Origin: an uncultured Rikenellaceae bacterium
GTDB taxonomy: Bacteria > Bacteroidota > Bacteroidia > Bacteroidales > VadinHA17
Direction of reading: 5' to 3'
Length of the DNA: 43,115 nt
Assembly: GCA_964607105.1 (NCBI GenBank)
Contig: CAZSJH010000002.1
Coordinates: forward strand, 1-43,115
This document shows, in pieces, positions 5,020 through 39,094 of this stretch. Below the pieces are notes generated by a model. That model was not told where the DNA came from. It was given only the letters and a program-made list of their open reading frames with translations, and ran no database searches. The translations under genes and the position numbers were made by a program. Position 1 is the stretch's first letter. Every line of letters starts with the position of its first letter.

Positions 5020-5110
5020 TAAAAAGATACCTTTAGTTACTTTTTTGAGATTTAGCCAGTAACAATCTAAAGGAGATAAAATTATTCCAGGAGATTTTAA
5101 TATCCAACTT

Positions 5111-5725: not shown

Positions 5726-5741
5726 CTAAATAAAATCTGAT

Positions 5742-7217
5742 TTGAGCCTTAAACATAAAACAGTAAGTGGATTAACGTGGAGTTTTGCAGGTGATTTCAT
5801 AGAGAAGATTATTGTCTTTGTTGTTGGCATTATACTGGCACGATTACTGACTCCTAGAGAATATGGGCTTGTTGGCATGGTTACAATCTTTATTGTCTTA
5901 ACCCAGCCCTTTATTAATAGCGGTTTTAGCCAGGCATTAATAAGGAAGCAGAATTGCACTAAAACTGATTTTTCAACTGTTTTTTACTTCAATTTCCTTG
6001 TCGGTGTGGTTTTTTATGTCTTACTCTTTTTTGCTGCTCCTTTGATCAGTAGGTTTTTCAAAGAACCACAGTTAACAGTACTGACCAGAGTAATAGGTAT
6101 AATAATTATTATAGATGCAGCCACGCTTATCCAAACTACTATACTTACAAAGAATATTGACTTTAAAAAACAAACCCAGATTCTTGTAATCTCATCTCTG
6201 CTTTCAGGCGGACTTGGAATTTTTCTAGCTTACTCTGGTTTTGGAGTATGGAGCCTGGTGTATAAAACAATAGCTCAACATACCATTAGGTCTGCTTTAT
6301 TATGGTTTATGAACAGGTGGTTACCAGCCAGGACATTCAGTAAAACAAGTTTTAAAGAGATGTTTGGCTTTGGATCAAATCTATTAATAAGTGCAATACT
6401 CGATAAGGTATATTACAATATTTATAATCTGATTATAGCGAAATTCTTTTCAGCAAGGGAACTTGGTTTATATTCCCGGGCTGACATGTTTAAGAATATG
6501 GCTTCAACAAATATCAGCAATATAATCGGCAGGGTCTCATTTCCTGTTCTGTCGAACCTTCAGGATGATCCGGAGCGTTTAAGTGCCAATTATAAGAAGA
6601 TCCTTACGAATACGATGTTTATAACCTTTATCTTAATGATCAGCATCGCTGCAGCAGCTAAACCACTAATTCTGACACTTATTGGTGAAAAATGGGCTGA
6701 TGCTATTGTATATCTACAACTGCTGTGTTTCGTAGGAATTTTTTATCCGCTGCATGCCATGACCAGGACTTTGCTGTATGTTTATGGAAAAAGCAGACTC
6801 TTCCTCAATCTGCAGATAGTTTCCAAACTATTGACAATCCCGGCTATAATGGTTGGGATATTTTATGGCATAAAGGCAATGATAATCGGAATGATAGCTG
6901 CCGGTGCCATTGAATACTTCATGAAAGCATATTATTCGGGGAAAATAGCAGGTTATTCGATTAAGGAACAGATAAAGGATTTGTTACCTATTGTTTTCCT
7001 TGCGCTTTTTATCGGAACTATACTGTCACTTATTCTTTATTTTATGAAAGCAAGCCCGGTAATAATATTGACTCTCCAGGTAATTATGGGTATTGGATTA
7101 ACTATAAGTATCTCTCATTTGTTCAAAATCCCTGAGTACATCTTTATAAAGTCAATACTAAGAGAAAAGCTGGGCGATATACTTAATAACCGGAGAAATA
7201 AATTTAATCAAGACTAA
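5742..7217 (+). CDS. wzx: Wzx-type (MOP superfamily) polysaccharide flippase, copy 2
   Basis: 491 aa and colinear with 1785..3242 over the whole length, with long identical blocks such as VVGIILARLLTPREYGLVGMVTIF and LQLLCFVGIFYPL. TTG is the first possible start after an in-frame TAA. Confidence 0.8.
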   Translation: MSLKHKTVSGLTWSFAGDFIEKIIVFVVGIILARLLTPREYGLVGMVTIFIVLTQPFINSGFSQALIRKQNCTKTDFSTVFYFNFLVGVVFYVLLFFAAPLISRFFKEPQLTVLTRVIGIIIIIDAATLIQTTILTKNIDFKKQTQILVISSLLSGGLGIFLAYSGFGVWSLVYKTIAQHTIRSALLWFMNRWLPARTFSKTSFKEMFGFGSNLLISAILDKVYYNIYNLIIAKFFSARELGLYSRADMFKNMASTNISNIIGRVSFPVLSNLQDDPERLSANYKKILTNTMFITFILMISIAAAAKPLILTLIGEKWADAIVYLQLLCFVGIFYPLHAMTRTLLYVYGKSRLFLNLQIVSKLLTIPAIMVGIFYGIKAMIIGMIAAGAIEYFMKAYYSGKIAGYSIKEQIKDLLPIVFLALFIGTILSLILYFMKASPVIILTLQVIMGIGLTISISHLFKIPEYIFIKSILREKLGDILNNRRNKFNQD

Positions 7218-7240
7218 TATGGTGAAAAATTGATCTCTTT

Positions 7241-8398
7241 ATGAAAGCAAAAACTGGACAGGAAAGTCCTGTTTCTCTATTCATATGTGGGGATATACTC
7301 AATAAAGAAAAAACTGAAGGATTGGTTTGTTCTCCGGAAATGGAGCAACTTGTTTCTTCAGCTGATTATTCAATATGTAATTTTGAGGCTCCTGTTTCAG
7401 GATTTGGAAAGGAACAGGATACCCCGGGAGGTCATCATAATCAAAGGCCGGAGACAATACCGGGTCTCAGGATACAGGGGTTTAATATGCTATTATTAGC
7501 CAATAATCACATGTTGGATTTTGGTAAACCGGCCCTGGAAGCCACTTTGAAACTAGCCGAAGAAAATGGACTTGATACAATAGGGGCCGGCTCAGATGAA
7601 GAATTTGCTTATCAGCCTGTTGTTAAACTAATAAAAGGCTTAAAACTTGGATTTATAAATGCCTGTGAGGCACAATTCGGTGTTCTTGACTATATGACCG
7701 GATCAAACAAGGCTGGTTATGCATGGATAAACCATTCTGTAATAGATAAGAATATACTATTGCTCAAAAAGAAGTGTGATTTTGTTATTGTGTTTTCACA
7801 TGCAGGATTAGAGGATTTCCCCATTCCGCAAAAGGAATGGAGGATAAGATACAAACATTTATGTGATCTGGGTGCAGATGTAGTCATTGGTTCCCATCCC
7901 CATGTTCCACAGGGTTATGAGCATTATGGAGAATCATTAATTTTCTATAGCCTTGGTAATTTTTATTTTGATACACGTCGTTACAGGCAAAAAGAAAATT
8001 CTTCTTTTTCAGTTTGGCTTGAATTGAAAAAAGGAGGGAAACCTTCTTTCAGACCTGTATATCATTATAAGCACGATGGTTTTACGGACTTTGCACCAGA
8101 GAATAAAAGAGTTGATATAGATAAACTTAATAGTCTCCTGGGTGATGCCTATGAGACTGAGCACGATAAGATGAGCATGACCGTTTATAACAGGATTAAG
8201 AATAAATTGACAATCTCCTTGTTCCCTCCTATTCCGGTTGATGGAAAGATAAAAACTTTTTTCAGGATGTTATTATCGTTGATCATTAAGAAAAAAATCA
8301 GCTATCGGGATCTTCATCAACTAATCTTATTTAGAAATGATTCCCTTTATTTTGCGATACGTCATGCCCTGGAACTAAAGGTACAAAATAGAAGATAA
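7241..8398 (+). CDS. CapA/PGA_cap-family metallophosphatase-fold protein (family of the poly-gamma-glutamate capsule protein CapA/PgsA)
   Basis: Ordered family motifs are present: ICGD, CNFEAP, LANNHMLDFG, VFSHAGLE, GSHPHVPQG, YSLGNFYFD. Confidence 0.75.
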   Translation: MKAKTGQESPVSLFICGDILNKEKTEGLVCSPEMEQLVSSADYSICNFEAPVSGFGKEQDTPGGHHNQRPETIPGLRIQGFNMLLLANNHMLDFGKPALEATLKLAEENGLDTIGAGSDEEFAYQPVVKLIKGLKLGFINACEAQFGVLDYMTGSNKAGYAWINHSVIDKNILLLKKKCDFVIVFSHAGLEDFPIPQKEWRIRYKHLCDLGADVVIGSHPHVPQGYEHYGESLIFYSLGNFYFDTRRYRQKENSSFSVWLELKKGGKPSFRPVYHYKHDGFTDFAPENKRVDIDKLNSLLGDAYETEHDKMSMTVYNRIKNKLTISLFPPIPVDGKIKTFFRMLLSLIIKKKISYRDLHQLILFRNDSLYFAIRHALELKVQNRR

Positions 8399-8406
8399 TT
8401 TTTAAG

Positions 8407-10089
8407 ATGGAAAAAACCGGACCGGTAAATCTTTATTCATTATCAGGGCTATTGGAAAAAAAATCCGAATTAAGTGATCTTTATGTTCTGGGAGATCCAA
8501 CTTTTATTAACCAAGCACCTAATACCGATGAATGGATTAAAGAAATTGGCAGTCTCTTTGAATCTGAAGAGAATAGTATCTCTACCCGTTTGACTGAAGA
8601 ATTAAGAAATACCCGGGGCTTATTTTCATTGATATTGAAAAAGAGAAATGAATATATCATTGTAAGTGATTTAATACGAAGTTATCCAATATTTTACGGA
8701 TTTCATAACGATAGATTCTTCATAACTGATAAACTTGAGAACTTCCAGAGGGAGCATGGACGCTTTGAGATAGATTATGATAAACTTGAGGAGTATATTT
8801 CCTGTGGTCTGGTTTTAGGAAATGGAACACTATATAAAAATGTCTATGGTTTACAGGCTGGGGAGATTGTGACGATAAATGATGATATAATTAGCTCAAA
8901 TAGATATTTTAAATATATACCTGCCGAGAATCCTGCTCACTTCAAGAACCTTGATGAATTCACTGATGCTTTTGATAAGGTATTGATTTCTGTTTTTTCT
9001 TATATCTTAAAGAAAAATTCGAATGTTAACAGGTGGATAGTACCTTTAAGTGGAGGTCACGATTCCCGATTAATTGTTAATTACCTCTATCGGCTAGGGA
9101 TTAAAAATGTACTATGTTTTACTTATGGCCTGGTAAATAATGAACAGGCAAGAATAAGTAAAAGGGTCGCCGATACTTTAGGTTATGAGTGGCATTTCGT
9201 AGAGTATACAGAACAAAAATGGCAAAAGCTGCATGATAAAGGGCTAATAGATGCCTTTATAAATTATTCCTTCAACGGTGTATCAATTCCCCATCTTCAG
9301 GACTTTCTCGCTATTTATGAATTGAAAGAAAAGAATATTATCACAGATGATGATATTATCATTCCCGGGCATTCTGCCGTAACCGCGAGATTTGATCAGA
9401 ACAATTTTGACTTTTTAGACTATAATGACGTAGTAAGAATAGCTTATTATCATGAGACAGTAGCCAGCAACATCGATATTCTTAATCAACAGGCATTAAA
9501 GGATTTATGCCTTATTGGTGAAATTTCAGATATAGGTCCGGGAAACTTCCGAGCTTTTATTAACTGGCAGGAAAGACAATCAAAATTTACTGTTAACAGT
9601 ATTCAGGCTTATGATTTTTTTGGTTTTAAGAGCCAGCTTCCTTTCTGGGATAGGCTTATGGTTGATTTCTGGTTAGATTATCCTGCAAATCAAAGGGCAG
9701 GGAGGCAAGTACTGTATCAGGCGGAAGAGAATGGACTGCTTGTTGATGAATTGAAGCAAGTTCCATTTGCCGGACAAAAGAAAGTGTCAGAGAATACTGC
9801 CCTTAAAAGCAGAATAAAAAAAATAATACCTGACTTTGTACTTGTTAAAATATTGCGTTTAACAGGTTATAAAGCTAAATTGGATGAAGCAATGAACCAG
9901 GTTTATGCTTTGAAAGCAGGATCTGTACTCGAGCTCCTGGACCCTGTAGATGATTTCCCTCAATCCACACGGTCATATTTTGATGCTAATTTGCATAAAT
10001 TTACATATCAGGTCGACTCTAACTTGATTACAAGGCTTTATACAGTCAGAAAGCTTCTGGATAAAAAAAAAAGGATTAACGGGATATAA
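8407..10089 (+). CDS. Asparagine-synthetase-B-like PP-loop ATP pyrophosphatase lacking the N-terminal Cys nucleophile, copy 2
   Basis: PP-loop PLSGGHDSRLIVNYLYRLGIKNV, nearly identical to copy 1. The LFSLILKK..VSDLIRSYPIFYGFHNDRFFITD and VYGLQAGEIVTI blocks are shared. There is no Cys2. Confidence 0.7.
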   Translation: MEKTGPVNLYSLSGLLEKKSELSDLYVLGDPTFINQAPNTDEWIKEIGSLFESEENSISTRLTEELRNTRGLFSLILKKRNEYIIVSDLIRSYPIFYGFHNDRFFITDKLENFQREHGRFEIDYDKLEEYISCGLVLGNGTLYKNVYGLQAGEIVTINDDIISSNRYFKYIPAENPAHFKNLDEFTDAFDKVLISVFSYILKKNSNVNRWIVPLSGGHDSRLIVNYLYRLGIKNVLCFTYGLVNNEQARISKRVADTLGYEWHFVEYTEQKWQKLHDKGLIDAFINYSFNGVSIPHLQDFLAIYELKEKNIITDDDIIIPGHSAVTARFDQNNFDFLDYNDVVRIAYYHETVASNIDILNQQALKDLCLIGEISDIGPGNFRAFINWQERQSKFTVNSIQAYDFFGFKSQLPFWDRLMVDFWLDYPANQRAGRQVLYQAEENGLLVDELKQVPFAGQKKVSENTALKSRIKKIIPDFVLVKILRLTGYKAKLDEAMNQVYALKAGSVLELLDPVDDFPQSTRSYFDANLHKFTYQVDSNLITRLYTVRKLLDKKKRINGI

Positions 10090-10181: not shown

Positions 10182-11306
10182 GTGGATAGAAAAAAAATCC
10201 TGATCGTCTCAGCAACTTTTTACCCTGAAAACTCACCACGTTCTTTTCGAACAACAGAGTTGGTAAAAGAAATGTCCCGGCAGGGACATGAAGTGCATAT
10301 TTATATTCCATTCAGGGGAAATGATTACAGCGAATTTGCCAGTGAACATAATCTGACAATAAAAGACCTTGGTAAACTAAGGTTTAAAAGCATTGAGCTT
10401 AAGGGCAGAAGGCTGGGGATGTATTTAAGGCGCATAGTAAGAAGAAGTATGACATTATTACTGGAGTACCCATATATTGAATTAATGTTTAAGGTCTCAA
10501 AGCATCTGAGGAAAGAGGATAATTATGATATGTTAATATCCATCGCAGTACCTTTTTCTGTACACTGGGGAGTGGCAAAGGCCCGGAGGAAGAACCACCG
10601 GATAGCTTCTATTTGGGTTGCTGACTGCGGTGATCCCTTTATGGGCAAACAGACTGATAGTTTCCAACGGCCTTTCTATTTTAAATATGTTGAAAAATGG
10701 TTCTCCCGTAAATGCGATTACCTTTCAGTACCGTTTGATGCCTTGAAAGATAAGTTTTACCCGGAGTTTAGTGATAAAATGCTTGTTATACCACAGGGTT
10801 TTAAGGTAGAAGACATTAAACTGGCTGACAAAGTCGATAACCCGGTACCTACATTTGCATTTTCAGGCTCAATAATTCCAGGGATACGTGATCTTAATTT
10901 GTTCTTTGAAATCCTGAAAGAAATAAATCGCAAGTTCAAGTTCTACATTTTTACCAGCCAGCCTGAATATTTTATGTCATTCAAGAATTATTTCGGAGAT
11001 AATCTGGAGATCAGCGGATATATTCCCAGATTGAAATTACTATATGAATTAAGCAAGTGTGATTTCCTGGTGAATGTTGATACTATCTATGACGGACAGT
11101 CATTAAATGCAGCCTTCCCAAGTAAACTTATTGACTATTCATTCACAAAAAGACCTATACTCAATATTTGCAGTAATTCTATAGATAAGGAAGTCGTTTT
11201 ACAATTCTTGGACGGAAACTATATAAATGAACGTAAAGTTGATTCTGATAAATACAGAATAGAGAATATTGTAGTAAGTTTTCTTGAACTTATTAATTCA
11301 GATTGA
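10182..11306 (+). CDS. GT-B fold glycosyltransferase (GT4-like)
   Basis: The N-terminus KILIVSATFYPENSPRSFRTTELVKEMSRQGHEVHIY is typical of the GT4 N-domain, and the C-terminal FPSKLIDYSFTKRPILN resembles the GT-B acceptor/donor loop. GTG start. This is the intact counterpart of the pseudogene at 5111..5725. Confidence 0.6.
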   Translation: MDRKKILIVSATFYPENSPRSFRTTELVKEMSRQGHEVHIYIPFRGNDYSEFASEHNLTIKDLGKLRFKSIELKGRRLGMYLRRIVRRSMTLLLEYPYIELMFKVSKHLRKEDNYDMLISIAVPFSVHWGVAKARRKNHRIASIWVADCGDPFMGKQTDSFQRPFYFKYVEKWFSRKCDYLSVPFDALKDKFYPEFSDKMLVIPQGFKVEDIKLADKVDNPVPTFAFSGSIIPGIRDLNLFFEILKEINRKFKFYIFTSQPEYFMSFKNYFGDNLEISGYIPRLKLLYELSKCDFLVNVDTIYDGQSLNAAFPSKLIDYSFTKRPILNICSNSIDKEVVLQFLDGNYINERKVDSDKYRIENIVVSFLELINSD

Positions 11307-11333: not shown

Positions 11334-12623
11334 ATGGATTTTAAAGAGAATATTGCAGAGTCTAAAATGTTTACTGCCACTGAAAGATGGAAAGAGGGAT
11401 TTAATTACTTCATAAGCTTCTTTCTATGGCCTTTTGGAGTTACCCTTGCAGCTTTAAGACACTGGGACAGACCATGGTCAAAAAATGTATTTTGGCTGTT
11501 TTGTATTTTTCTTGGCTTTACTTTTATAATTGCAGAAGAAGGCGGTGCTGATTCGGACAGATATGCCAGGTTATTTATTCATTATGCTCACTCCAACCTC
11601 AGCCTTTCAGAACTATGGAGTTCCTTCTACAGTGAGACCTCCAGTTATGTTGATATTTTTTCCCCACTGGTGACCTACCTGGTTTCCCGTTTAACTGACA
11701 ATCCAATATTCCTTTTTACCGTTTTTGCTTTTATTTTTGGATACTTCTTCTCAAGAAATATATGGTATGTCCTTGAAAGGCTTGATGGTAAAACCACGCT
11801 TATAGTATTTATTTATATTCTAACCTTTGCATTGATAAATCCCATATGGAATATCAATGGTTTCCGTTATAATGTTGCTGCACAGGTATTTCTGTTCGGG
11901 GCACTTCCTTATGTCCTGGAAGGTGATCGTAAAAGTTTAATCTGGTCGGGTGTTTCAATTTTTTTCCATTTTTCCTTCATGTTTCCTGTTGCAATTCTTC
12001 TTATATACATCATATTGAAGAACAGGCTCAATATCTACTTTGTGTTTTTTATAATCTCAGCCTTTATTAAAGAAATTGATCTTATGTATGTGCGGTCAGC
12101 CTTGCTGTTTCTGCCGGATATTTTTCATAATAAAGTAATAAATTATACCAACCCGGAGTATGCTGAAGCTTTGAGTAATTCAAGTCAAATGCTAAACTGG
12201 TATGTACCTTTATCAATTAATTCAATAAAATGGGTTGTATATGGTACCATGGTATATATCTATTTTTTTGGCAGGCACTTTCTTAAGGAAAGGAAGGGCT
12301 TAAATTCGTTGATGAGTTTTTCCCTATTACTATATGCTTGTGCCAATATTGTCAGCCTGATTCCAATCATGGGCCGTTTCATAATGGTATCAAACACTTT
12401 TATGTATGCCTTTATAATTTTGTTTATTACATCCTTCCCGAATATTAAGGGCATGAAATTAATTAATGTATTATCACTACCTTTTATATTACTGTCCTGT
12501 ATAGTCAGCATAAGAATTGGGATGGATTACTATGGCTTAATGGCAGTATTGGGAAATCCATTTATTGCTGCAGTATATTCAGATACTACCCCTATGATAA
12601 ACAGTATTAAACGGTTATTATAG
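11334..12623 (+). CDS. Polytopic membrane protein, candidate Wzy-type (EpsG-like) repeat-unit polymerase
   Basis: 429 aa with roughly 10 or more hydrophobic helices and no soluble domain. It sits in a locus with Wzx and a BY-kinase but no other polymerase candidate. The call rests on context and topology only. Confidence 0.5.
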   Translation: MDFKENIAESKMFTATERWKEGFNYFISFFLWPFGVTLAALRHWDRPWSKNVFWLFCIFLGFTFIIAEEGGADSDRYARLFIHYAHSNLSLSELWSSFYSETSSYVDIFSPLVTYLVSRLTDNPIFLFTVFAFIFGYFFSRNIWYVLERLDGKTTLIVFIYILTFALINPIWNINGFRYNVAAQVFLFGALPYVLEGDRKSLIWSGVSIFFHFSFMFPVAILLIYIILKNRLNIYFVFFIISAFIKEIDLMYVRSALLFLPDIFHNKVINYTNPEYAEALSNSSQMLNWYVPLSINSIKWVVYGTMVYIYFFGRHFLKERKGLNSLMSFSLLLYACANIVSLIPIMGRFIMVSNTFMYAFIILFITSFPNIKGMKLINVLSLPFILLSCIVSIRIGMDYYGLMAVLGNPFIAAVYSDTTPMINSIKRLL

Positions 12624-12665: not shown

Positions 12666-13811
12666 TTGGCACTTAAACCTTATTTAGGACGTATATATAC
12701 AAATTTACGAGGCTGGAGGACTAAGCGTAAAATTGTAGTAATCGAGTCTGATGACTGGGGAAGTATAAGAATGCCTTCAAGGGAAGTATATGAACAATGC
12801 CTGGATGCAGGTTATCCCGTTGATAATGTATCCTATGATCGGTATGATTCACTCCTGAGCCAGTCTGACCTGGAATTACTTTTTGAATTGCTGACAAAAT
12901 ACCGTGATAAAAACGGTAACCATCCTGCCATAACTGCCAATTGTGTTGTTGCAAATCCTGATTTTGAAAAAATCAGGAGGGATAATTTTCAGAAATATCA
13001 TTATGAATTAATTACTGATACTTTCAAAAGATATCCTGCACATAAAAACAACTTAAGTATGTGGAAAGAAGGAGTACAAAAAAAAATTTTCCTTCCGCAG
13101 TTTCACGCAAGAGAGCATTTGAATGTTAGTTTATTCATGAAGTACCTTCAGGATGGCAACAGGGATGTCCATTTTGGTTTTGAAAATGGAATGCCGGGTA
13201 TCATTCTTAACGGGCCCAGAGGCACAGGTAATTATTTTGTTGAAGCAAGCCACTATGAATCAGTATCAGATAAGGAAGATAAACTAAATATTTATATTGA
13301 GGGTCTCGACTTGTTTGAAGGGCTTTTTGGATACAGATCTGAATCAATAATACCTCCTAACTACACATGGAGTCCAGACTTTGATGCTGCCGTGCTCAAT
13401 AAGGGTGTAAGAATATTTCAGGGCTTACGAAAAATGAAGGAGCCGGTTCCAGGTGATGGTTATATATATCATTCGTCTTTCATCGGTAAAAGGAATTCGC
13501 TGGGGCAGGTTTATCTTGTAAGGAATGCTTTATTTGAACCCTCAATGTTCAATCTCGGTGTTAAAAATCATGTGGATCGGTGTTTAAAAGAAATATCCAT
13601 TGCCTTTGCAATGCAAAAACCGGCCATAATTACCAGTCACCGTATTAATTATTCAGGTTTTATAGACTGCAGTAACCGAGATAGAAATCTTAAAATGCTT
13701 GACGAGTTGTTATCGAAAATGTTGAAACAGTGGCCACGGATTGAGTTTATGACATCAGATCAACTGGGGCTTTTGATAAGTAATGAGAATCACCAAACAA
13801 TAATTACTTAA
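12666..13811 (+). CDS. Divergent CE4/NodB-like (deacetylase-fold) protein, paralog A
   Basis: VVIESDDWGS (Asp-Asp motif), PQFHAREHLN (HxxxH) and ITSHRINYSG. It is colinear with 25785..26906. TTG start. The family assignment is tentative. Confidence 0.4.
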   Translation: MALKPYLGRIYTNLRGWRTKRKIVVIESDDWGSIRMPSREVYEQCLDAGYPVDNVSYDRYDSLLSQSDLELLFELLTKYRDKNGNHPAITANCVVANPDFEKIRRDNFQKYHYELITDTFKRYPAHKNNLSMWKEGVQKKIFLPQFHAREHLNVSLFMKYLQDGNRDVHFGFENGMPGIILNGPRGTGNYFVEASHYESVSDKEDKLNIYIEGLDLFEGLFGYRSESIIPPNYTWSPDFDAAVLNKGVRIFQGLRKMKEPVPGDGYIYHSSFIGKRNSLGQVYLVRNALFEPSMFNLGVKNHVDRCLKEISIAFAMQKPAIITSHRINYSGFIDCSNRDRNLKMLDELLSKMLKQWPRIEFMTSDQLGLLISNENHQTIIT

Positions 13812-13812
13812 T

Positions 13813-14940
13813 ATGTATATTAGAATACTCACATGTAGTTCATTATCATACAAAGAACGAATTAAGAACTTCGTAAGATACTATATGGTAAGAAGAAGTG
13901 CCCGAATTCAGTGGGGAAAAAGGGGTTTCATCAAAATTTTGTCTAAAAATCCTGAATATGGAGTACCAGCAGAAAAGTCTGTTGAAGAAGCTCATAAGAA
14001 GTATTGGAAACCCTTTAGAAAGAAGGTAAACCTTACCACACTAAGGTTAACAAAAAATATATCAGGAGTCTCAAATCCAAAATTTATACCACATGAAATA
14101 TTTGCATCGGATATAGAACCTCTTATGAATCAATCTCCTGGAATTATATACCTTACTTATAAAAGTTTATCAAACCATTGGTTCCCAGGCAATATTTTCC
14201 CCCGTGATTATTTTCATAATATTGATGGTGGATGGTTCGACCATAATCTGGAGCCGGTAGATCTGAATCAGATATATTCTATAATAGAAAAAATAAAATA
14301 TCCTGTAGTAATGAAACCCAACAGGGATTCCTATGGCGGTAAGAATATTCATTTCCCTGAGTCTAAAGCAGAACTCCTAAAACTTATTGAGGGACAAACG
14401 GACATTCTCGTTCAGGAGGAGATAAAGAAGCATCCTTTTTACGAACAGTTTGGTAAAAAAGGCCTTAATACGCTCCGGGTTAACGTTTACCGTTCATTCA
14501 TAGATAATAACTGGCACGTAACCAGTGCAGCTCTGCGAATGGGTATTAGTGGATCATTAGATAACCTGTCATCAGGAGGGATAGCAGCATTGATAAATAC
14601 AGATGGGTTCTTAAATGGTTTTGCAATTGATTATGCCGGGAATAAATATTTTAAACATCCCGATACCGGAGTGGCTTTTGATCAGGAAATACCTGATTTT
14701 GAAGGGCTGAAAAAAATTTCACTGGATATAGCCAATAAATTATTTTATGCCAGGTTAGCATCTCTGGATATTTGCTATGATTTTGAAGGCAGGTGGAAAG
14801 CGATAGAAGTTAATATAACCAATACTTCCTTAAGCCATTTTGCTCAGCATCACGGAGCAGAATTTTTCGGTGAATTTACCGATGAAGTATACGAATATTG
14901 TTTAAAGAATCACTGGGCACTAAAATCAGACAAACTATGA
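13813..14940 (+). CDS. ATP-grasp amidoligase of the sugar-transfer-associated type (ATPgrasp_ST-like)
   Basis: YPVVMKPNRDSYGGKNIHF (ATP-grasp phosphate loop region), LNTLRVNVYRS, and AALRMGISGSLDNLSSGGIAALINTDGFLNG (DNxxxGG signature). Confidence 0.65.
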   Translation: MYIRILTCSSLSYKERIKNFVRYYMVRRSARIQWGKRGFIKILSKNPEYGVPAEKSVEEAHKKYWKPFRKKVNLTTLRLTKNISGVSNPKFIPHEIFASDIEPLMNQSPGIIYLTYKSLSNHWFPGNIFPRDYFHNIDGGWFDHNLEPVDLNQIYSIIEKIKYPVVMKPNRDSYGGKNIHFPESKAELLKLIEGQTDILVQEEIKKHPFYEQFGKKGLNTLRVNVYRSFIDNNWHVTSAALRMGISGSLDNLSSGGIAALINTDGFLNGFAIDYAGNKYFKHPDTGVAFDQEIPDFEGLKKISLDIANKLFYARLASLDICYDFEGRWKAIEVNITNTSLSHFAQHHGAEFFGEFTDEVYEYCLKNHWALKSDKL

Positions 14941-16016
14941 TACGGGTTAACATCAATAAGATACTTTTTCATTTTAGAATGATGCTAAACAGATTATTCG
15001 AAACGATTAAAATGGGATTGATTTTAAGTTATGTAAGAAATCAAGCACATATTCAAAGGAGAGATGCTGTTAGAGAAAAGGGCATCAAGGCTCTGGACAG
15101 AAAAACAAAAAGAACTATAAAAAAATATGCCAGACAACGATTTGGCAAAGCATCATATTGGCCATACCTGGCCCTTTATACCGAAATAAGGGGACAATTC
15201 ATCAAGGGGTGGATTCCAGCAGATTACTACAGGTTTAAGTTGTTGCCAAAGATCAACCCAAAACCCTCTGTTTATATGGATGCATTAAAAACTTTTGATT
15301 ACAGATTATTTGGTGATTTTGCCGTAAAACCACTTCTGCTGTATATAAATGGCCTCTTCTATAACACAGAAATGGAAGTGGTTGAAAAAAATAGTATTGA
15401 AACCATGATGGCTGAATATGATAATGAAATTGTAATAAAAGAAGAAGGAGGATGGGGTGGTGAGCAGGTAAGCGTTATTCACTCTAACGATTTTGATGAA
15501 ACGAGATTCGATAAAAGGAAAAATTTCGTAATTCAGCCCTATGTGAGACAATATAAAGTATTAAACGACCTGTATCCTCATAGCGTCAATACTTTACGGG
15601 TAAATACTTTTATAAGAAAGAACGGATCCATCGACACTTTGTCTGTATGGTTACGCTTTGGGGGCGATGGAAGAAGGGTAGATAATATAACATCCGGTGG
15701 TAGTTATCTGTATTTTGATCTCAATGGAAAATCCGAAAAAGTGAGTTACGATATGTCAACAGGCAGTGAGCAAGGTGACAGACATAAAGATACAGGTTAC
15801 ATTTTCTCTGATATTAAAATACCTATGTTCAACAAAGTACTGGATGCCTGTAAGGATGCTCATAAAAAGTATCCTTATGTAAGATTGATAGCCTGGGATG
15901 TAGCTGTCGACAGCTCTGGGGAACCAAAGCTTCTGGAGTGGAATGCTAACAATCCTGAGTTCGTATACACTGATGCTAAATTTGGTCCGCACTGGTACGA
16001 AGACGAAGAAATTTAG
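14937..16016 (+). CDS. ATP-grasp amidoligase (ATPgrasp_ST-like), second copy
   Basis: VNTLRVNTFIRKNGSIDTLSVWLRFGGDGRRVDNITSGGSYLYFDLNGK, then RLIAWDVAVDSSGEPKLLEWNANNPEF. I prefer the ATG at 14937 (ATGA overlap with the upstream stop) over the track start at 14898. Confidence 0.65.
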   Translation: MIRVNINKILFHFRMMLNRLFETIKMGLILSYVRNQAHIQRRDAVREKGIKALDRKTKRTIKKYARQRFGKASYWPYLALYTEIRGQFIKGWIPADYYRFKLLPKINPKPSVYMDALKTFDYRLFGDFAVKPLLLYINGLFYNTEMEVVEKNSIETMMAEYDNEIVIKEEGGWGGEQVSVIHSNDFDETRFDKRKNFVIQPYVRQYKVLNDLYPHSVNTLRVNTFIRKNGSIDTLSVWLRFGGDGRRVDNITSGGSYLYFDLNGKSEKVSYDMSTGSEQGDRHKDTGYIFSDIKIPMFNKVLDACKDAHKKYPYVRLIAWDVAVDSSGEPKLLEWNANNPEFVYTDAKFGPHWYEDEEI

Positions 16017-16034
16017 GCGAATAAGATTAAGTAC

Positions 16035-17066
16035 ATGAAATTAGCAATTCACCATAGAGATAAGAGTTTCAGCCGTGGATGGATTGATAATTGTATTAAA
16101 CATAATATAGACCACAAGATTGTTAACTGTTACGCTAACAATATTATCGAGCAAGTTAACGATTGTGATATTTTGATGTGGCACCACCACCATGAAAGTT
16201 CCAAAGATATTCAGTTTGCTAAGCAATTGATTTATTCCCTTGAGATGGCAGGTAAGCTTGTCTTTCCGGATTTCAGGACCACATGGCATTTCGATGACAA
16301 GCTCGGCCAGAAATACCTCCTTGAATCAATCGGAGCTCCGCTTGTTCCTGTAAATGTTTTCTATTCAATGGAGGATGCAAAAAAATGGATACATGAGTCA
16401 GAGTTCCCAAAGGTTTTCAAATTGCGTGGTGGCTCAGGCTCAATGAATGTCAGACTGGTGAAATCATCAAGCCATGCTATCAGGCTTGCCAGGAAGGCAT
16501 TCAGATCAGGATTTAAAAATTACAATTCATTTTTCCAGCTTAAAGACAGGTGGACTAATTACAGAATTAAAGATGCACCATTAACAGAAGTATTTGAAGG
16601 TCTTGCAAGATTTTTTATACCAACCAGATTCTGGACTATTACCGGTAAGGACCGTGGATATATTTATTTTCAGGATTTTCTCCCGGGAAATACTCATGAT
16701 ATCAGGATAAACTATGTGTATAACAAATGTTTTGCCTGCAGGCGAAAAGTAAGGCAAAATGATTTCAGGGCTTCAGGTAGTGGTGTGCCCGATTGGGATG
16801 TGTCAAATATCCCTGATAAGGCTTTATCGATTGCTTTTAATGTTGCCAATGAGCTGAAGCTTCAATGTGCAGCTTTCGATTTCATATTAAAGGACGAAGA
16901 TCCACTTATAACAGAAATAAGTTATGGATTTGGCACCCTTCCGGAAATGTTTAATTATGGATACTGGGATGAAAACCTGACTTATTATCCGGGTAATTTT
17001 GATCCTTACGGATGGATGGTCCAGGGTATATTGAAAGAAAAAGAATCGCTGATAAATACTAAATGA
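16035..17066 (+). CDS. ATP-grasp domain protein (RimK/generic amidoligase-like), paralog 1
   Basis: DKLGQKYLLESIGAPLVPVNVFYSMEDAKKWIHESEFPKVFKLRGGSGSMNVRLVKS, YIYFQDFLPGNTHDIRINYVYNKCFACRRKV..DFRASGSG, and ITEISYGFG. Confidence 0.65.
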   Translation: MKLAIHHRDKSFSRGWIDNCIKHNIDHKIVNCYANNIIEQVNDCDILMWHHHHESSKDIQFAKQLIYSLEMAGKLVFPDFRTTWHFDDKLGQKYLLESIGAPLVPVNVFYSMEDAKKWIHESEFPKVFKLRGGSGSMNVRLVKSSSHAIRLARKAFRSGFKNYNSFFQLKDRWTNYRIKDAPLTEVFEGLARFFIPTRFWTITGKDRGYIYFQDFLPGNTHDIRINYVYNKCFACRRKVRQNDFRASGSGVPDWDVSNIPDKALSIAFNVANELKLQCAAFDFILKDEDPLITEISYGFGTLPEMFNYGYWDENLTYYPGNFDPYGWMVQGILKEKESLINTK

Positions 17067-17083
17067 TAAATATTTATTAAGTA

Positions 17084-18103
17084 ATGAAGCTGGCAGTACA
17101 CCATCGAGAAGGATCTTTCAGTAAATACTGGCTTGAATATTGTGAATCAAATAATATTCACTGTAAAAGAGTGGATTGTTACCGTAATGATATAATCGAT
17201 CAGCTTTCTGACTGTGATGCCTTGATGTGGCATCACAATCATATCAGCCCTAAAGATCCAATTTTTGCCAAGCAATTACTTTTCACACTTGAAACATCAG
17301 GAATGACAGTATGCCCTGATTTTAGATCAAACTGGCATTTTAATGACAAATTGGGTCAGAAATATTTACTTGAATCCATAAAGGCTCCTGCCGTTCCATC
17401 ACATGCTTTTTATTCAAAGAATGATGCCTTAGACTGGTTAAAAAAAGCCTCTTTACCTAAAGTATTTAAATTGCGCGGCGGTTCTGGTTCTGATAGTGTC
17501 AAATTGGTCAAGAACAGAAGAGAAGCTTTAAGATTAATAAATAGATCATTTGGCAGGGGTTTCAAACAATATAATGCTATAGGTAGTTTAAAAGAACGGC
17601 TGAGACAATTCAGGAATGGTAAGGTAGATCACACCGAGGTTATTAAAGGAATAATCAGGCTGTTTGCTCCACCTCCTTATTCACGGGTTCTCAAAAGGGA
17701 TCGTGGTTATGCTTATTTCCAAGACTTCATCCCGGCTAATACTCATGATATAAGAGTTACCTATGTGTTCAACAGGTGTTTTGCTCTAAGGCGAAAAGTA
17801 AGACCGGGAGATTTCAGGGCCTCAGGAAGTGGGATGATCGAATATGATATGTCAAAAATACCTCTGGAAGCATTAAAAATTGCTTTTAGTGTTGCAAATC
17901 AGTTGAAACTACAATGTGCAGCATTTGACTTTGTGTTGGATAAGGGCGAACCACTTATAGTTGAATTGAGTTATGGCTTTGGCTACGATACCGACCAGTT
18001 TAATCATGGATACTGGGATGAGCACCTTAATTATTACCCGGGTACTTTTAACCCTTACGGCTGGATGGTTGAGGGTGTTATAGAACAACATAATTCAAAG
18101 TGA
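17084..18103 (+). CDS. ATP-grasp domain protein (RimK/generic amidoligase-like), paralog 2
   Basis: Colinear with 16035..17066 (KVFKLRGGSGSDSVKLVKN, YAYFQDFIPANTHDIRVTYVFNRCFALRRKVRPGDFRASGSG, QCAAFDFVL). Confidence 0.65.
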   Translation: MKLAVHHREGSFSKYWLEYCESNNIHCKRVDCYRNDIIDQLSDCDALMWHHNHISPKDPIFAKQLLFTLETSGMTVCPDFRSNWHFNDKLGQKYLLESIKAPAVPSHAFYSKNDALDWLKKASLPKVFKLRGGSGSDSVKLVKNRREALRLINRSFGRGFKQYNAIGSLKERLRQFRNGKVDHTEVIKGIIRLFAPPPYSRVLKRDRGYAYFQDFIPANTHDIRVTYVFNRCFALRRKVRPGDFRASGSGMIEYDMSKIPLEALKIAFSVANQLKLQCAAFDFVLDKGEPLIVELSYGFGYDTDQFNHGYWDEHLNYYPGTFNPYGWMVEGVIEQHNSK

Positions 18104-18188: not shown

Positions 18189-19253
18189 GTGAAAATAGTC
18201 CTTATCTTACCATCGTTATCTTCAGGGGGATTGGAGAAAGTAATAACCGAACTGGCCTGGTACTTCTCCCGGCAAAAAAGCACTCAGGTTTACCTTATCA
18301 GCCTATCAAAAGGTGAATTCTTCTACAATCTGCCTACGGAGATTGAGACATTTATGCCTCCTTTCAGTTTAAAAGAAATGTCGAGGCCCTTATTCCTTAT
18401 TAGACTTATGGCCTGGTTAAGAAAGCAGGTTAAAAAAATTAGATCGGATGCCCTTCTTAGCTTTGGTGGTAAATTTAATGCCTTTGTGCTCCTGTCGCTT
18501 TTCAGATTGCCGGTACGGGTATATATCTCTGACCGAAGCAGGCCTTCGATAAGCTACGGCAAATTTCTTGACTGGTTGAATCCAAAAGTATATAAGAGAG
18601 CTACTGGAATAATTGCTCAAACCGAAAAAGCTAAAGAAATTCTTTATAAGCGTACCGGTCATCCTAACATTTCAGTAATCGGTAATCCCTTGAGAATAAG
18701 TTATACTAATATAGAAAAACGCAAAAAGATTATTCTTAATGTCGGGCGTTTTATATTCTCAAAAAAACAGGATTTGCTTATAAGTTATTTTGCTCAGATA
18801 AACCCTGAAGGATGGAAACTTTGCTTCATTGGTGATGGTATCAATCTGAACAGGGTAAAAGAGCTTACTTCAGAACTTGGAGTTGAAGACAGGGTAATCT
18901 TCTATGGAGAAGTAAATAACGTAGAAGAGTATTATAAAGAAAGCTGTGTCTTTGCTTTTACCTCTGTTTCAGAAGGTTTTCCCAATGCTCTTGGAGAAGC
19001 TATGGCTGCCGGATTAGCCTGCATAAGCTTCGATTGTGAAGCAGGCCCTTCTGATCTTATAAATGATGGAGTGAATGGTTTCCTCATACCTGAATGTGAT
19101 CATGAAGCATACATACAGAAACTTCGATTGCTGATAAATGATAAGTCATTACGAGAAAAATTGGGTGCAAGAGCAAAAGAAAGAATCTCAGAGTACAGCT
19201 TTGAGCGGATTGGAAAGCAATACCTGGACTTTTTTGAGGAGGTTAAGCCATGA
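18189..19253 (+). CDS. GT4-family glycosyltransferase
   Basis: MKIVLILPSLSSGGLEKV N-terminus and the C-terminal EGFPNALGEAMAAGLACISFDCEAGPSDLINDGVNGFLI (E-x7-E region). GTG start. Confidence 0.8.
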   Translation: MKIVLILPSLSSGGLEKVITELAWYFSRQKSTQVYLISLSKGEFFYNLPTEIETFMPPFSLKEMSRPLFLIRLMAWLRKQVKKIRSDALLSFGGKFNAFVLLSLFRLPVRVYISDRSRPSISYGKFLDWLNPKVYKRATGIIAQTEKAKEILYKRTGHPNISVIGNPLRISYTNIEKRKKIILNVGRFIFSKKQDLLISYFAQINPEGWKLCFIGDGINLNRVKELTSELGVEDRVIFYGEVNNVEEYYKESCVFAFTSVSEGFPNALGEAMAAGLACISFDCEAGPSDLINDGVNGFLIPECDHEAYIQKLRLLINDKSLREKLGARAKERISEYSFERIGKQYLDFFEEVKP

Positions 19254-22632: not shown

Positions 22633-22638
22633 TTTTGG

Positions 22639-25784: not shown

Positions 25785-26906
25785 ATGATCAATCAAATAA
25801 AACAGAATTTAAAAAATATCATTGGCTGGAAGACCCGGCGGAAAATAGTTATACTTTCTATTGATGACTATGGAAATGTAAGGACTGCCTCAAGAGAAGC
25901 CCTTCAAAACCTCAGGAAAGCCGGATTGAAACTGGGAAGGTTTGACGAGATTGATACACTTGAAACGAAACAGGATCTTGAGGGAATGCTGGAAACTCTG
26001 TCATCGGTAAAAGATATGAATGGGAATAATGCCGTTTTAACCCCTTTTGCAGTTCCTTGTAATATAGATTTTGAGAAAATGGCCGAGGATAATTTCAGCA
26101 ATTACCATTATGAGATGCTACCTCTTACTTTCAGTAAACTTGCCTTAAAAGACCCTGCGGCCTATGAGGGAGCATGGGATTTATGGGAAGAAGGGATTGC
26201 GAACAGGTTATTGGTACCACAATTTCACGGCAGGGAACATTTTAATCTAAAGGTTTTCGAGGAAAAATTGGAGAATAAAAATCCTGAATTGCTTGCCTCA
26301 TTGAAGAACTTTTCAAATCCGGGCCTTAATAACTTGGGCTCTAAGACAGTACAGTATACTGCAGCCTTCGAATTCTGGGATTTTAAAGAAAATCAGCGAT
26401 TCGAAGATATTATCGAGGATGGCTTGAATGCTTTTGAAAAAGTCTTCGGATACCGATCTGTACATTTTAATGCACCTTGCGGAAGTCAGCATCATATAAT
26501 TCATGAGGTCCTTAGAAAAAATGGAATAAAATATATAGATAATCCATTAATAAAGAAAGAACACCAGGGCTTTGGTGAATATAAGACTATTTTCAATTAT
26601 ACAGGGAAAAAGGATTCTACAGGGTTAATATATCAGGTCAGGAATATAGTATTCGAACCAACCCTTTATGGAGGCACTAACTGGGTTAATTACGCGATGC
26701 AACAAATTGCCTCGGCTTTTCGCTGGAACAAGCCTGCTATAATAAGCTCGCACCGTGCAAATTTTTGTGGACACATGGAACCGGAAAACAGGAAACAGGG
26801 ACTTGCCTACCTGAAAGAACTGTTACACAGAATAAGAGAAAAATGGCCAGAGGTAGAATTTATGTCTGCTGATCAATTGGGAGATCTTATAGCTACTGAA
26901 AAATGA
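25785..26906 (+). CDS. Divergent CE4/NodB-like (deacetylase-fold) protein, paralog B
   Basis: VILSIDDYGN, PQFHGREHFN and ISSHRANFCG. It is colinear with 12666..13811. Confidence 0.4.
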   Translation: MINQIKQNLKNIIGWKTRRKIVILSIDDYGNVRTASREALQNLRKAGLKLGRFDEIDTLETKQDLEGMLETLSSVKDMNGNNAVLTPFAVPCNIDFEKMAEDNFSNYHYEMLPLTFSKLALKDPAAYEGAWDLWEEGIANRLLVPQFHGREHFNLKVFEEKLENKNPELLASLKNFSNPGLNNLGSKTVQYTAAFEFWDFKENQRFEDIIEDGLNAFEKVFGYRSVHFNAPCGSQHHIIHEVLRKNGIKYIDNPLIKKEHQGFGEYKTIFNYTGKKDSTGLIYQVRNIVFEPTLYGGTNWVNYAMQQIASAFRWNKPAIISSHRANFCGHMEPENRKQGLAYLKELLHRIREKWPEVEFMSADQLGDLIATEK

Positions 26907-27907
26907 GTTTAAAAAAGTTAGTATACCTCGGCTACTACCTGAAAAACATTGATGCAAAGAAGCTATCAAGTTTTCTCAAATATGCTAAAATGCGAACTGG
27001 TAAATCCAGGCTCACCCTGTTTTTAAGTGCAATTAAAAGTGTTTTTGTGTATAATATTTCAATCCTTGAGTACTTTCAATTCCGGTTTTTTGAGATAAAG
27101 AGGGAAGAACATTTTAATTGGGCCGGTACCGGGTTCATGTTTGAGTACCAGAAGAAAATGAATCCTTTACGAGTTAGAAGTGTGCTGGAGAATAAGATTT
27201 TATTCAATAAACATTTTAATGCTTATTTCGGCAGGGGGTTTGCTACCATTGAGGACATTAAAAGGAAGCCGGAAATTGCAGAAAAACTGATTAAAAATCC
27301 TTCAGGGAAAGTGGTCCTTAAGAATTCTCTTGGCCAGGCCGGGAAAGAGATAAAAGTACTTGACAATACAGGTATGACACCTTCTCAACTAATTAATATA
27401 ATGAGATCAGGTAAATTTGATCTTGTTGAAGAATATATTGTTCAACACCCTGAGATGATGAAATTATCATCAGCCGGCTTAAATACAATCAGAATAGTAA
27501 CGCAGGAAGTTAATGGAAATATTGAGATAGTTGCTGCAAGACTGAGGATTACCATAAATTCTGTTGTAGACAATCTTGCAGCAGGCAATGCTGCAGCACC
27601 TGTTGATCTTGAATCAGGAAAAATAAGCGGTTCTGCTGTATTCAGTGACATAACCAAACCTGATATTAGTGTTCATCCCGTGTCAGGTGCAGAGATACCT
27701 GGTTTTCAGATCCCTCTCTGGTCTGAAATAATCGAGATGATAGAAAAAGCTGCATTAATGGTTCCTGAAAACAGGTCTGTAGGCTGGGATATAGCTGTAA
27801 CTCAAGAAGGTCCTTTACTGGTGGAAGGAAACCACAACTGGTGTAAGTTATTGTGGCAACTGCCTGTCAAACAGGGGTTGAAGGGACAATTACTAAAATA
27901 CCTCTGA
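26903..27907 (+). CDS. ATP-grasp amidoligase (ATPgrasp_ST-like), third copy
   Basis: GKVVLKNSLGQAGKEIKVL, LNTIRIVTQEVNGNIEIVAARLRITINSVVDNLAAGNAAAPVDLESGKISG, and GWDIAVTQEGPLLVEGNHNW. ATGA overlap with the upstream gene. Confidence 0.65.
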   Translation: MSLKKLVYLGYYLKNIDAKKLSSFLKYAKMRTGKSRLTLFLSAIKSVFVYNISILEYFQFRFFEIKREEHFNWAGTGFMFEYQKKMNPLRVRSVLENKILFNKHFNAYFGRGFATIEDIKRKPEIAEKLIKNPSGKVVLKNSLGQAGKEIKVLDNTGMTPSQLINIMRSGKFDLVEEYIVQHPEMMKLSSAGLNTIRIVTQEVNGNIEIVAARLRITINSVVDNLAAGNAAAPVDLESGKISGSAVFSDITKPDISVHPVSGAEIPGFQIPLWSEIIEMIEKAALMVPENRSVGWDIAVTQEGPLLVEGNHNWCKLLWQLPVKQGLKGQLLKYL

Positions 27908-28506
27908 TGGAAAGAATCCTGATCTTCATTAAACATCATCTCGCTTTCCTCTGGAGAATTATTGAATGGGGAAACGGACTTATGTTTTCTTTGTTCTTTG
28001 GTTCCAAACTGGATAGAGTATTGTCTGTTGTGTTTAGAGAATTCTCGAAACCTCCTTTTCTATACAGAGAGCTAACCCAGGCTGATGCTGATATGTTATA
28101 TGAGCTGATTAATTCACAGGAAGGCGCTGATCTTGAGTATTTTCAACCACACGGATTTGACAAAGGTTCAATAAAAAAGCAATTTAGGAATCGATCTTTC
28201 CTGATGATGGGTGTGTTTGACGAAAATAGGATGATTGGATATTTCTTCCTTCGTTTCTTTGCAAACAGGAAAAGCTTCGTAGGCAGGTTAATTGATAAGG
28301 GATACAGGGGTAAAGGAATTGGCCTGATCATGAATGATATTATGTATGAAACCTCATGGGGAATGGGATTCCGATGCCTTTCGACAATTTCAAGGAGTAA
28401 CACTGCAGTTATGAAAGCTCATTCTAAAAATCAAAGTATGAAAGTACTGAAAGAACTACAGAATGATTACCTGCTGGTTGAATTTATAAGTAAGAACACT
28501 GATTGA
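27907..28506 (+). CDS. GNAT-family N-acetyltransferase
   Basis: GRLIDKGYRGKGIGLIMNDIM (GNAT motif A, R/Q-x-x-G-x-G). I prefer the ATG at 27907 (TGATG overlap) over the track start at 27853, which would overlap the upstream gene by 55 nt. Confidence 0.65.
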   Translation: MERILIFIKHHLAFLWRIIEWGNGLMFSLFFGSKLDRVLSVVFREFSKPPFLYRELTQADADMLYELINSQEGADLEYFQPHGFDKGSIKKQFRNRSFLMMGVFDENRMIGYFFLRFFANRKSFVGRLIDKGYRGKGIGLIMNDIMYETSWGMGFRCLSTISRSNTAVMKAHSKNQSMKVLKELQNDYLLVEFISKNTD

Positions 28507-39063: not shown

Positions 39064-39094
39064 AATGTTTATTTTTCTTATATTATGTCTTAAT

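Follow-up and report, generated by a model that had tools for sequence, protein, structure and literature searches.

A modular cassette of ATP-grasp ligases and a deacetylase-like partner in a polysaccharide locus of an uncultured Rikenellaceae bacterium

For what purpose would a polysaccharide locus encode four consecutive ATP-grasp ligases? This question is raised by the first 43,115 nucleotides of contig CAZSJH010000002.1 (assembly GCA_964607105.1) from an uncultured Rikenellaceae bacterium, the whole of which is denoted here as the window. Four ligase genes, termed A1, A2, B1, and B2, follow a gene for a deacetylase-like protein, termed G0, and the five genes form a block on the plus strand (positions 12666-18103). 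In a preliminary description, drawn from the letters of the DNA, the block had been presented as a series of ligases for the stepwise assembly of a short peptide; the five reading frames, the motifs quoted there, and the spacings are all present. The block is not unique; it represents the expanded form of a modular cassette that is widespread and uncharacterised. Most likely, this cassette serves to link a sugar with amino acids or with a short peptide, by a chemistry that is inferred. In the general form of this model, the sugar of a lipid-linked repeat unit is decorated with amide-linked amino acids, which is considered reasonably probable.

The polysaccharide setting that the preliminary description had implied is evident, since the block sits within a Wzx/Wzy-type polysaccharide locus of about 35 kb that occupies window positions 5 to ~34600 and runs on the plus strand throughout. 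The locus encodes a Polysacc_synt_2 protein, two Wzx flippases, an EpsG/Wzy-like polymerase, six glycosyltransferases, and an initiating transferase of the Bac_transf family, together with two AsnB-like proteins, a PGA_cap protein, an ADH_zinc/GFO fusion protein, a heparinase II/III-like protein, a genuine CE4 deacetylase, a DUF218 protein, a DegT aminotransferase, and a hexapeptide acetyltransferase. Within the block, G0 and A1 are separated by a gap of 1 nucleotide (nt), A1 and A2 share an ATGA overlap, and gaps of 18 and 17 nt separate A2 from B1 and B1 from B2, respectively. None of the five proteins contains a hydrophobic segment of transmembrane grade.

The modular nature of the cassette becomes apparent from 84 loci that were annotated against the window proteins, with ligases counted in complete runs contiguous with G0 (strict contiguity rule). 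A recurring frame has the order GT4a - EpsG/Wzy - G0 - (second G0) - (PGA_cap) - B - GT1a, in which GT4a and GT1a are glycosyltransferases and B is a ligase of the B1/B2 type. Most related loci keep the order GT4a-EpsG-G0, and in most of them GT1a lies 3' of the last ligase. The cassette has representatives in Bacteroidota, Balneolota, and Ignavibacteriota and in a small number of Proteobacteria (Rhodovulum, Thiorhodococcus), and its ligase number ranges from zero to six (no ligase in 44 runs, one in 27, two in seven, three in four, four and five in one run each, and six in two). Cultured carriers are Rhodohalobacter barkolensis with six ligases, Fodinibius salsisoli with three, Fodinibius sp. 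SL11 with two, Negadavirga shengliensis, and Flavobacterium sp. ACAM 123. The runs devoid of ligases are in part merely interrupted by an extra gene and in part true G0-only loci; G0 therefore has a role that is independent of a ligase. As the gene order of the window recurs in locus L001, and expanded or reduced versions are present in dozens of genomes, the five-gene block is not a product of chance.

The ligases of the cassette show a nested occurrence. The B-type is the commonest ligase next to G0 and is frequently found alone, A1 is nearly always accompanied by B, and A2 is accompanied by A1 in nine of the ten related loci carrying A2 as well as in the window, the exception being L038. 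The copy number of A2 varies between zero and three in Bacteroidota and is zero, one, or three in Balneolota. This nesting fits a stepwise extension. The parts of the cassette are furthermore linked by four gene fusions (Table 1), which join G0 to a ligase, PGA_cap to G0, a B-type ligase to a glycosyltransferase, and a G0-like protein to a glycosyltransferase. Additional enzymes inserted into the cassette in other genomes, an opine dehydrogenase, an AsnB amidotransferase, and a methyltransferase, with a sulfotransferase nearby, act on amines or carboxylates, in support of the amide-decoration model, and suggest a hotspot for alternative tailoring of sugar amines or carboxylates.

Table 1. Positions of the cassette genes, of neighboring genes in the window, and of fused or inserted genes in related loci (aa, amino acids)
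Feature	Source	Position	Strand	Remarks
G0	Window	12666..13811	+	TTG start, 381 aa
A1	Window	13813..14940	+	ATPgrasp_ST, PF14397 2.1e-25
A2	Window	14937..16016	+	ATPgrasp_ST, PF14397 2.8e-35; alternative TTG start at 14898
B1	Window	16035..17066	+	RimK/LysX-like ATP-grasp, PF08443 23.7 bits
B2	Window	17084..18103	+	RimK/LysX-like ATP-grasp, 58% identical to B1
G0b	Window	25785..26906	+	G0 paralog, 34.5% identical over full length, E 3e-74
A3	Window	26903..27907	+	Fifth ATP-grasp of the locus, ATPgrasp_ST A3 clade
GNAT-like N-acetyltransferase	Window	27913..28506	+	Follows A3; start by open reading frame tool GTG 27853
Asn1, AsnB-like paralog	Window	3334-5019		46% identical to Asn2
PGA_cap (CapA/MslH-like)	Window	7241..8398	+	PF09587 3.9e-50, 171 bits
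Asn2, AsnB-like	Window	8407..10089	+	Weak Asn_synthase, TIGR01536, and lasso-cyclase matches
GT4a glycosyltransferase	Window	10182-11306	+	Pfam; 5' frame of the cassette
EpsG/Wzy-like polymerase	Window	11334-12623	+	Pfam; 5' frame of the cassette
GT1a glycosyltransferase	Window	18189..19253	+	Pfam Glycos_transf_1 2.8e-39; 3' frame of the cassette
Fusion, G0 + A1-clade ligase	L015, Flavobacterium sp. ACAM 123	6836-9058		740 aa
Fusion, PGA_cap + G0	P0343			787 aa
Fusion, B-type ligase + GT4-type transferase	L075, Geofilum rubicundum	4365-6479		704 aa
Fusion, G0-like + GT4	P0260			838 aa
Opine (octopine) dehydrogenase	L017	11243-12334		In cassette
Full-length AsnB amidotransferase	L066	12341-14272		In cassette
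Sulfotransferase	L066	5465-6445		Near cassette
DUF362 protein	L063	11070-12416		In cassette
DUF362 protein	L078	11773-13143		In cassette
Methyltransferase	L052	11183-11869		In cassette

The four ligases of the block are real ATP-grasp enzymes with intact nucleotide- and Mg-binding residues. A1 and A2 belong to the ATPgrasp_ST family of Pfam (PF14397), as does A3, a further ligase encoded downstream in the locus, with scores of 89.9, 122.3, and 151.6 bits (A3, E 3.3e-44), respectively, against a gathering cutoff of 31.4 bits; B1 and B2 do not match this model. The preliminary assignment of the first two ligases to this type is thereby confirmed, and its characteristic motifs are found in A1 (GLNTLRVNVY and DNLSSGG) and A2 (SVNTLRVNTF and DNITSGG). 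The conserved residues of A1 comprise K168, the Gly loop, R222, D250-N251, G255-G256, D318, and E332-x-N334. Among 47 ATPgrasp_ST homologs, K168, G176, the Arg of NTLR, the DN...GG motif, D318, and E332-x-N334 are at least 95% conserved, and all of them are present in A1, A2, and A3. ATPgrasp_ST proteins bear N-terminal extensions of ~150 residues. A1 and A2 are 24% identical (E 3e-16), and each is about equally distant from A3. In a tree, the family splits into three old clades: A1, normally with one copy per locus directly 3' of G0; A2, with zero to three copies downstream of A1; and A3, with one copy after the G0 paralog G0b. A recent tandem duplication giving rise to A1 and A2 is ruled out by this topology, so that, of the two paralog pairs proposed initially, only B1/B2 holds. 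The family, named 'sugar-transfer associated ATP-grasp', was reportedly defined computationally by Iyer et al. in 2009 and owes its name to polysaccharide-gene neighborhoods of this kind. Literature searches on ATPgrasp_ST found no experimental characterisation, and searches on ATP-grasp together with polysaccharide deacetylase in Bacteroidetes returned nothing. New to the family are its division into three clades, its constant association with G0, a copy number that varies, and the fusions.

B1 and B2 indeed form the closer pair of another ATP-grasp type (E 9e-153) and share the motifs PKVFKLRGGSGS, FLPGNTHDIR/FIPANTHDIR, and DFRASGSG. Both score barely above the cutoff of the Pfam RimK domain PF08443 (23.7 bits for B1 and 22.5 bits for B2 versus 21), and both stay below the cutoffs of TIGR00768 (39 bits, 5.9e-10, and 33 bits, 4e-8, respectively, versus 143.4) and of the S6-glutamate ligase model NF007764 (14-15 bits versus 331). 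An AlphaFold2 model of B1 (predicted local distance difference test, pLDDT, 86; predicted template modeling score, pTM, 0.83) matches RimK, ArgX, LysX, and Ddl over the full length with TMt values of 0.73-0.82; Foldseek lists RimK 5zct at 6e-15, ArgX 3vpb at TMt 0.80, and LysX 1uc9 at TMt 0.81. RimK, LysX, and ArgX, which add Glu or alpha-aminoadipate to the C-terminal carboxylate of a protein, thus represent the best full-length structural matches and have the K...GGxGS loop, DIR, DFRxx, and the D...E pair in common with the B-type. The latter differs by an identity of only 11-19%, an E-x-S motif, a helical insert of ~50 residues relative to RimK (residues ~157-206; model helices 165-179 and 183-194), and its location in a polysaccharide locus devoid of a carrier protein. 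Across 62 B-type homologs, K126/K129, the GG loop, D282, and E294 are conserved. Pseudo-enzymes or decaying paralogs are ruled out by the conservation of catalytic residues in the 47 A-type and 62 B-type homologs. With fold matches and conserved residues at hand, the absence of an ATP-grasp fold or of nucleotide-binding residues, which the preliminary description had named as the finding that would speak against it, is not observed. In a neighbor-joining tree, the B1/B2 duplication is also present in the close relatives L001 and L006: B1 groups with the copies of these two loci and B2 with the B genes that L003, L007, and L012 carry in single copy. B1 is apparently an extra copy originating from a local duplication, and B2 appears to be the 'core' ligase type next to G0.

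G0 had been described as CE4-like. Its predicted fold and residue pattern agree in part with this designation, whereas its sequence does not match any model of Pfam or NCBIfam, including Polysacc_deac_1 (PF01522). Searches of PDB sequences with phmmer and with a G0 family profile yielded only spurious matches to thioesterases and PPR proteins. The AlphaFold2 model (pLDDT 86.9, pTM 0.88) falls, as a (beta/alpha)7 barrel, within the glycoside-hydrolase/deacetylase superfamily, and its Foldseek matches comprise HP0310 (3qbu, 1.4e-7), PdaC, ArnD, PuuE, and NDST, along with GH57 enzymes. D29-D30, H147-x-R-E-H151, and H325-R326 are invariant in 20 homologs and are positioned in the model where beta-strands end, in the same succession as CE4 motifs 1, 2, and 5. 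As modeled, G0 resembles the NodB-type de-N-acetylases of family CE4 (PgdA, PdaC, ArnD, PgaB, and NDST) in its barrel and in its motif order, with DD at the end of strand 1 and with HxxxH and a late His each following a strand; it differs in the missing Polysacc_deac_1 match, in equal scores for GH57, and in its larger size with extra inserts. Judged by the modeled fold, G0 is probably a cytoplasmic hydrolase-like protein of the CE4/GH57 superfamily, likely a de-N-acetylase. The TTG start at 12666 is supported by the alignment of homologs, which favors an upstream start; the public gene call (P0001, 346 aa) begins at the internal Met36 and loses D29-D30. The G0 family is large: it has 6,719 matches in a database clustered at 90% and comprises 1,651 clusters when grouped at 50% identity, and its members are named only 'hypothetical' or, in one case, 'polysaccharide (de)acetylase'. 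The closest named relatives, with 64-67% identity, come from a metagenome-assembled genome of Bacteroidetes (HyVt-32), Marinilabiliaceae, and Saccharicrinis; a protein with a tail for type IX secretion, encoded on the minus strand of the window, identifies the organism as a member of Bacteroidota.

A second, smaller module lies further downstream in the same locus, where the G0 paralog G0b, A3, and a gene for a GNAT-like N-acetyltransferase succeed each other. Neither G0b nor A3 is part of the preliminary account. G0b scores 22.3 bits with Polysacc_deac_1, just under the cutoff of 23.1, and overlaps A3 by ATGA. The GNAT-like protein shows weak matches to GNAT models of Pfam (1.2e-3 and 6e-3) and a motif of the RGKGIG type, VGRLIDxxYxGKGIG, conserved in five orthologs; a five-member profile retrieves exclusively GNATs from the PDB (2fl4, 2e-3; PseH, 0.02; RimL, 0.04). 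The G0b-A3-(GNAT) order recurs in L003, L031, L032, L039, and L078, among them loci of Rhodovulum (L032), Ignavibacteria (L078), and Prolixibacteraceae (L039). The module would deacetylate a sugar, ligate an amino acid to it, and N-acetylate the product, reminiscent of mycothiol synthesis. In that pathway, MshB deacetylates an N-acetylglucosamine moiety, MshC ligates an amino acid to the resulting amine, and MshD N-acetylates it. The order of steps proposed for G0b-A3-GNAT, and for G0 with its ligases, is the same; the folds are unrelated, with MshB being of the LmbE type and MshC related to class I tRNA synthetases, and mycothiol is a small thiol and not a polymer, so that the analogy is one of logic only.

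The events catalyzed by the cassette may be pictured as follows. At the cytoplasmic face, a sugar of the undecaprenyl-diphosphate-linked repeat unit, or its nucleotide precursor, would serve as the substrate. G0 would strip an N-acyl group from this sugar, leaving a free amine. Each ATP-grasp ligase would then form one amide bond via an acyl-phosphate, the intermediate established for ATP-grasp chemistry, and thereby add amino acids. B2 is supposed to be the core ligase, A1 the first accessory ligase, and A2 responsible for extension, with B1 as a recent duplicate of altered specificity. The product would be either a short peptide joined by amide bonds or a number of amino-acid substituents, and the side chain, together with the surface antigen, would alter as ligase genes are gained or lost. 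An amine as acceptor is pointed to by the fold of G0, the fusion of G0 to an A1-type ligase, the G0b-A3-GNAT triad, and the opine dehydrogenase. A plausible class of products exists, as amide-linked amino acids are frequent constituents of O antigens and capsules in bacteria; those of Escherichia coli O antigens alone include Gly, Ala, N-acetyl-Ser, and D-allo-Thr (PMC7685785).

Two proposals of the preliminary description bear directly on this mechanism. Stepwise assembly is indirectly supported by the nested occurrence of zero to six ligases per locus, with independent decoration of several sites as a competing possibility. That the upstream gene serves the ligases is in line with the conserved adjacency, the G0+ATPgrasp_ST fusion, and the deacetylase-type fold of G0; judging by the G0-only loci, G0 does not strictly depend on a ligase.

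Several observations weigh against the amide-decoration model. The RimK/LysX fold of the B-type, the AsnB genes, and the MslH-like PGA_cap point to a carboxylate as acceptor, i.e. to growth in the C-terminal direction by the logic of Mur, RimK, and N-acetylglutaminylglutamine amide (NAGGN) synthesis. The chemistry assigned to the G0, ATPgrasp_ST, and B families is inferred. A link in sequence between G0 and CE4 is absent in Pfam, in NCBIfam, and in hhalign comparisons with the window's own CE4 protein, and the Foldseek matches of G0 are divided between CE4 and GH57 with TM-scores of 0.4-0.7. Under the strict contiguity rule, G0 or G0-G0 lacks an adjoining ligase in 44 of the 86 complete runs. 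The nesting of B, A1, and A2 is derived from ~20 loci of few lineages, with L038 deviating, and the fusion of G0 to a ligase is a single case, as a search with the 740-aa protein of L015 returned only itself at full coverage. The B family has, in all 62 homologs, Ser296 in place of the Mg-binding Asn (E-x-S versus E-x-N). Predicted sigma-70 promoters (42 versus 41.7 in shuffles) and intrinsic terminators (6 versus 6.8) between 10000 and 20500 stay at the level of shuffled sequences, a result that is uninformative on co-transcription, with Bacteroidota promoters lying outside the scope of the promoter scan.

A more specific version of the amide-decoration model, which is regarded as unlikely, assumes that a succession of ATP-grasp ligases, each catalyzing a single step, builds one non-ribosomal peptide stem, attached to a sugar within a Wzy-polymerised capsule or O antigen. 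Here, G0 would supply the attachment amine, and a MslH/CapA-type epimerase together with AsnB-type amidation would act as tailoring functions. Such a pathway resembles MurC-F, to which the block had been compared at the outset, in that a paralogous series of ATP-dependent ligases, acting via acyl-phosphates, adds one residue each to a sugar-linked carboxylate. The likeness concerns the logic and not the fold: Pfam and NCBIfam scans revealed no Mur-ligase domains, the Mur-ligase fold being replaced here by ATP-grasp, and the Mur series is fixed, whereas the number of ligases in the cassette varies among taxa. The epimerase would be PGA_cap, whose gene lies between G0 and B in many relatives and whose protein has no segment of transmembrane grade. 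The CapA homolog MslH epimerises the C-terminal residue of its substrate, the C-terminal Trp of a lasso peptide (PMC8179263, PMC10406935). PGA_cap matches the MslH model NF038314 at 1.1e-13 (50 bits versus a cutoff of 700) and the MslH structure 8gq9 at 2.8e-11, and it keeps the equivalents of E44, N87, H88, D91, H259, and H295; H261 aligns to a Leu, and D11 is outside the aligned region. These similarities make PGA_cap a candidate for the epimerisation of an amino acid bound through an amide. Both AsnB-like proteins, Asn1 and Asn2, begin with residues (MEKT.. and MRMK..) that lack the N-terminal catalytic (glutaminase) Cys; they are therefore not expected to be glutamine amidotransferases and probably function as adenylating amide synthetases.

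Alternatively, each ligase could amidate a separate site, e.g. the carboxylate of a uronic or other acidic sugar, with an amine of its own, without a peptide chain and with G0 acting separately. This arrangement is regarded as unlikely. It has a precedent in the C-terminal domain of Cj1438 from Campylobacter jejuni HS:2 (Cj1438C), a TupA-like ATP-grasp that is fused to a glycosyltransferase and amidates the glucuronic acid (GlcA) of the capsule (PMC11800379). In the literature searched, Cj1438 is also the sole enzyme that came to light as joining an amine to the sugar of a polysaccharide via an amide. Like Cj1438C, the ligases studied here reside in a surface-polysaccharide locus and are tied to glycosyltransferases, as in the B-type and G0 fusions of other genomes. 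Unlike it, they are of the ATPgrasp_ST or RimK type, and none of the four matches ATPgrasp_TupA at E <= 1. Cj1438C is furthermore a single ligase without a deacetylase-like partner, and its acceptor is the GlcA carboxylate, whereas no uronic-acid pathway is visible in the window. Independent decoration is consistent with the RimK/LysX-type fold of B, which implies a macromolecular carboxylate acceptor, and with the AsnB-type amidotransferases and the heparinase II/III-like protein of these loci, whose functions are related to uronic acids; the G0-only loci likewise accord with a G0 that works without ligases. UDP-sugar 6-dehydrogenases are rare, with none encoded in the ~35-kb locus of the window and three among 144 sampled neighboring reading frames of related loci. 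Amidation of uronic acids as a general function is down-weighted for this reason, although weakly, as genes for 6-dehydrogenases can lie elsewhere in the genome. Separate decorations leave three findings unexplained: the G0+ligase fusion, the triad of G0b, A3, and GNAT, and the fact that A2 hardly occurs without A1.

Less probable still is that some or all of the ligases act in the cytoplasm like L-amino-acid ligases or Ddl and produce, in free form, a dipeptide, an oligopeptide, or an uncommon N-acyl amino acid, which another enzyme would pass on to the sugar as a unit. The NAGGN pathway, in which an ATP-grasp enzyme and an AsnB-like amidotransferase act on a free dipeptide, provides the comparison, and weak TIGR03104 matches, the Ddl structures among the Foldseek matches of B1, and the opine dehydrogenase of L017, which could yield a free opine acid, are in agreement with it. 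A separate transferase for such a unit is not evident in the cassette, though, the fusions couple ligases and G0 directly to glycosyltransferases, and the N-terminal extensions of ATPgrasp_ST proteins are atypical of small-molecule ligases. Even though the closest structural matches, RimK, LysX, and ArgX, all act on protein C-termini, it is very improbable that the B enzymes, and perhaps the A-type, attach tails of amino acids to some export or assembly protein instead of a glycan, in view of the lack of S6, a LysW-like carrier, or another small acidic protein gene in the cassette, the RimK equivalog and TIGR00768 scores below cutoff, and the strict linkage to glycosyltransferases, Wzy, and G0, which is seen in the polysaccharide loci of several phyla.

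ATP-grasp amidoligases encoded among polysaccharide genes are already known as a kind; the merit of the cassette lies in the G0 family, which matches no model of Pfam or NCBIfam, in the series of zero to six ligases, and in the fusions, which delimit a testable functional unit. As candidate enzymes for such amide linkages, the cassette provides three uncharacterised families, G0 included. The loci form a natural series in which rules of one residue per ligase are directly testable; should these rules hold, the gene content of loci in Bacteroidota, Balneolota, and Ignavibacteriota could allow a prediction of side-chain chemistry and thereby of serotype and phage-receptor diversity. A use of the ligases in glyco-engineering is also conceivable. 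If the single-stem version were true, it would represent a second, independently evolved counterpart of the stem-peptide pathway of peptidoglycan, with length and sequence of the stem set by the number of A2- and B-type genes of each strain (zero to six).

Upstream of the cassette, the locus bears traces of a segmental duplication, 1785-5019 versus 5742-10089, in which the two Wzx proteins are 67% identical, with 70% identity of their DNA over 1249 nt. The intervening stretch 5020-5741, which lacks an open reading frame of at least 120 aa, contains the frameshifted relic of a second GT4a (47% identical over 163 aa, E 4e-54) with residues 1-56 in a different frame. The unit of Wzx1, Asn1, and the GT4a pseudogene resembles the stump of an alternative locus version, with an L006-type 5' end, joined to the L001-type version, and suggests a recombination at the locus.

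On the 3' side, a trio of genes at 20485-25772 encodes the oxidoreductase fusion (ADH_zinc/GFO-IDH-MocA), the heparinase II/III-like protein, and a GT4 glycosyltransferase. The GFO half of the fusion resembles UDP-GlcNAc 3-dehydrogenase (5.5e-22). The trio is also located 3' of the cassette in L001, L003, L007, L009, L014, and L057; in L063, by contrast, the genes for ADH/GFO and the heparinase-like protein precede G0. Two further conserved proteins are encoded by the locus: one of 391 aa (28570-29745), with a faint BNR/Asp-box match only and homologs in L010 and L043, and one of 241 aa without a family match (33908-34633). Strand and guanine-cytosine skew switch at ~35-36 kb. The genes on the minus strand (34637-42428) are probably outside the polysaccharide locus; they encode a Pel9A-like beta-helix protein with Big_7 repeats, secreted by the type IX secretion system, an AMP-binding enzyme, an NAD synthase, and a full-length glutamine-dependent AsnB.

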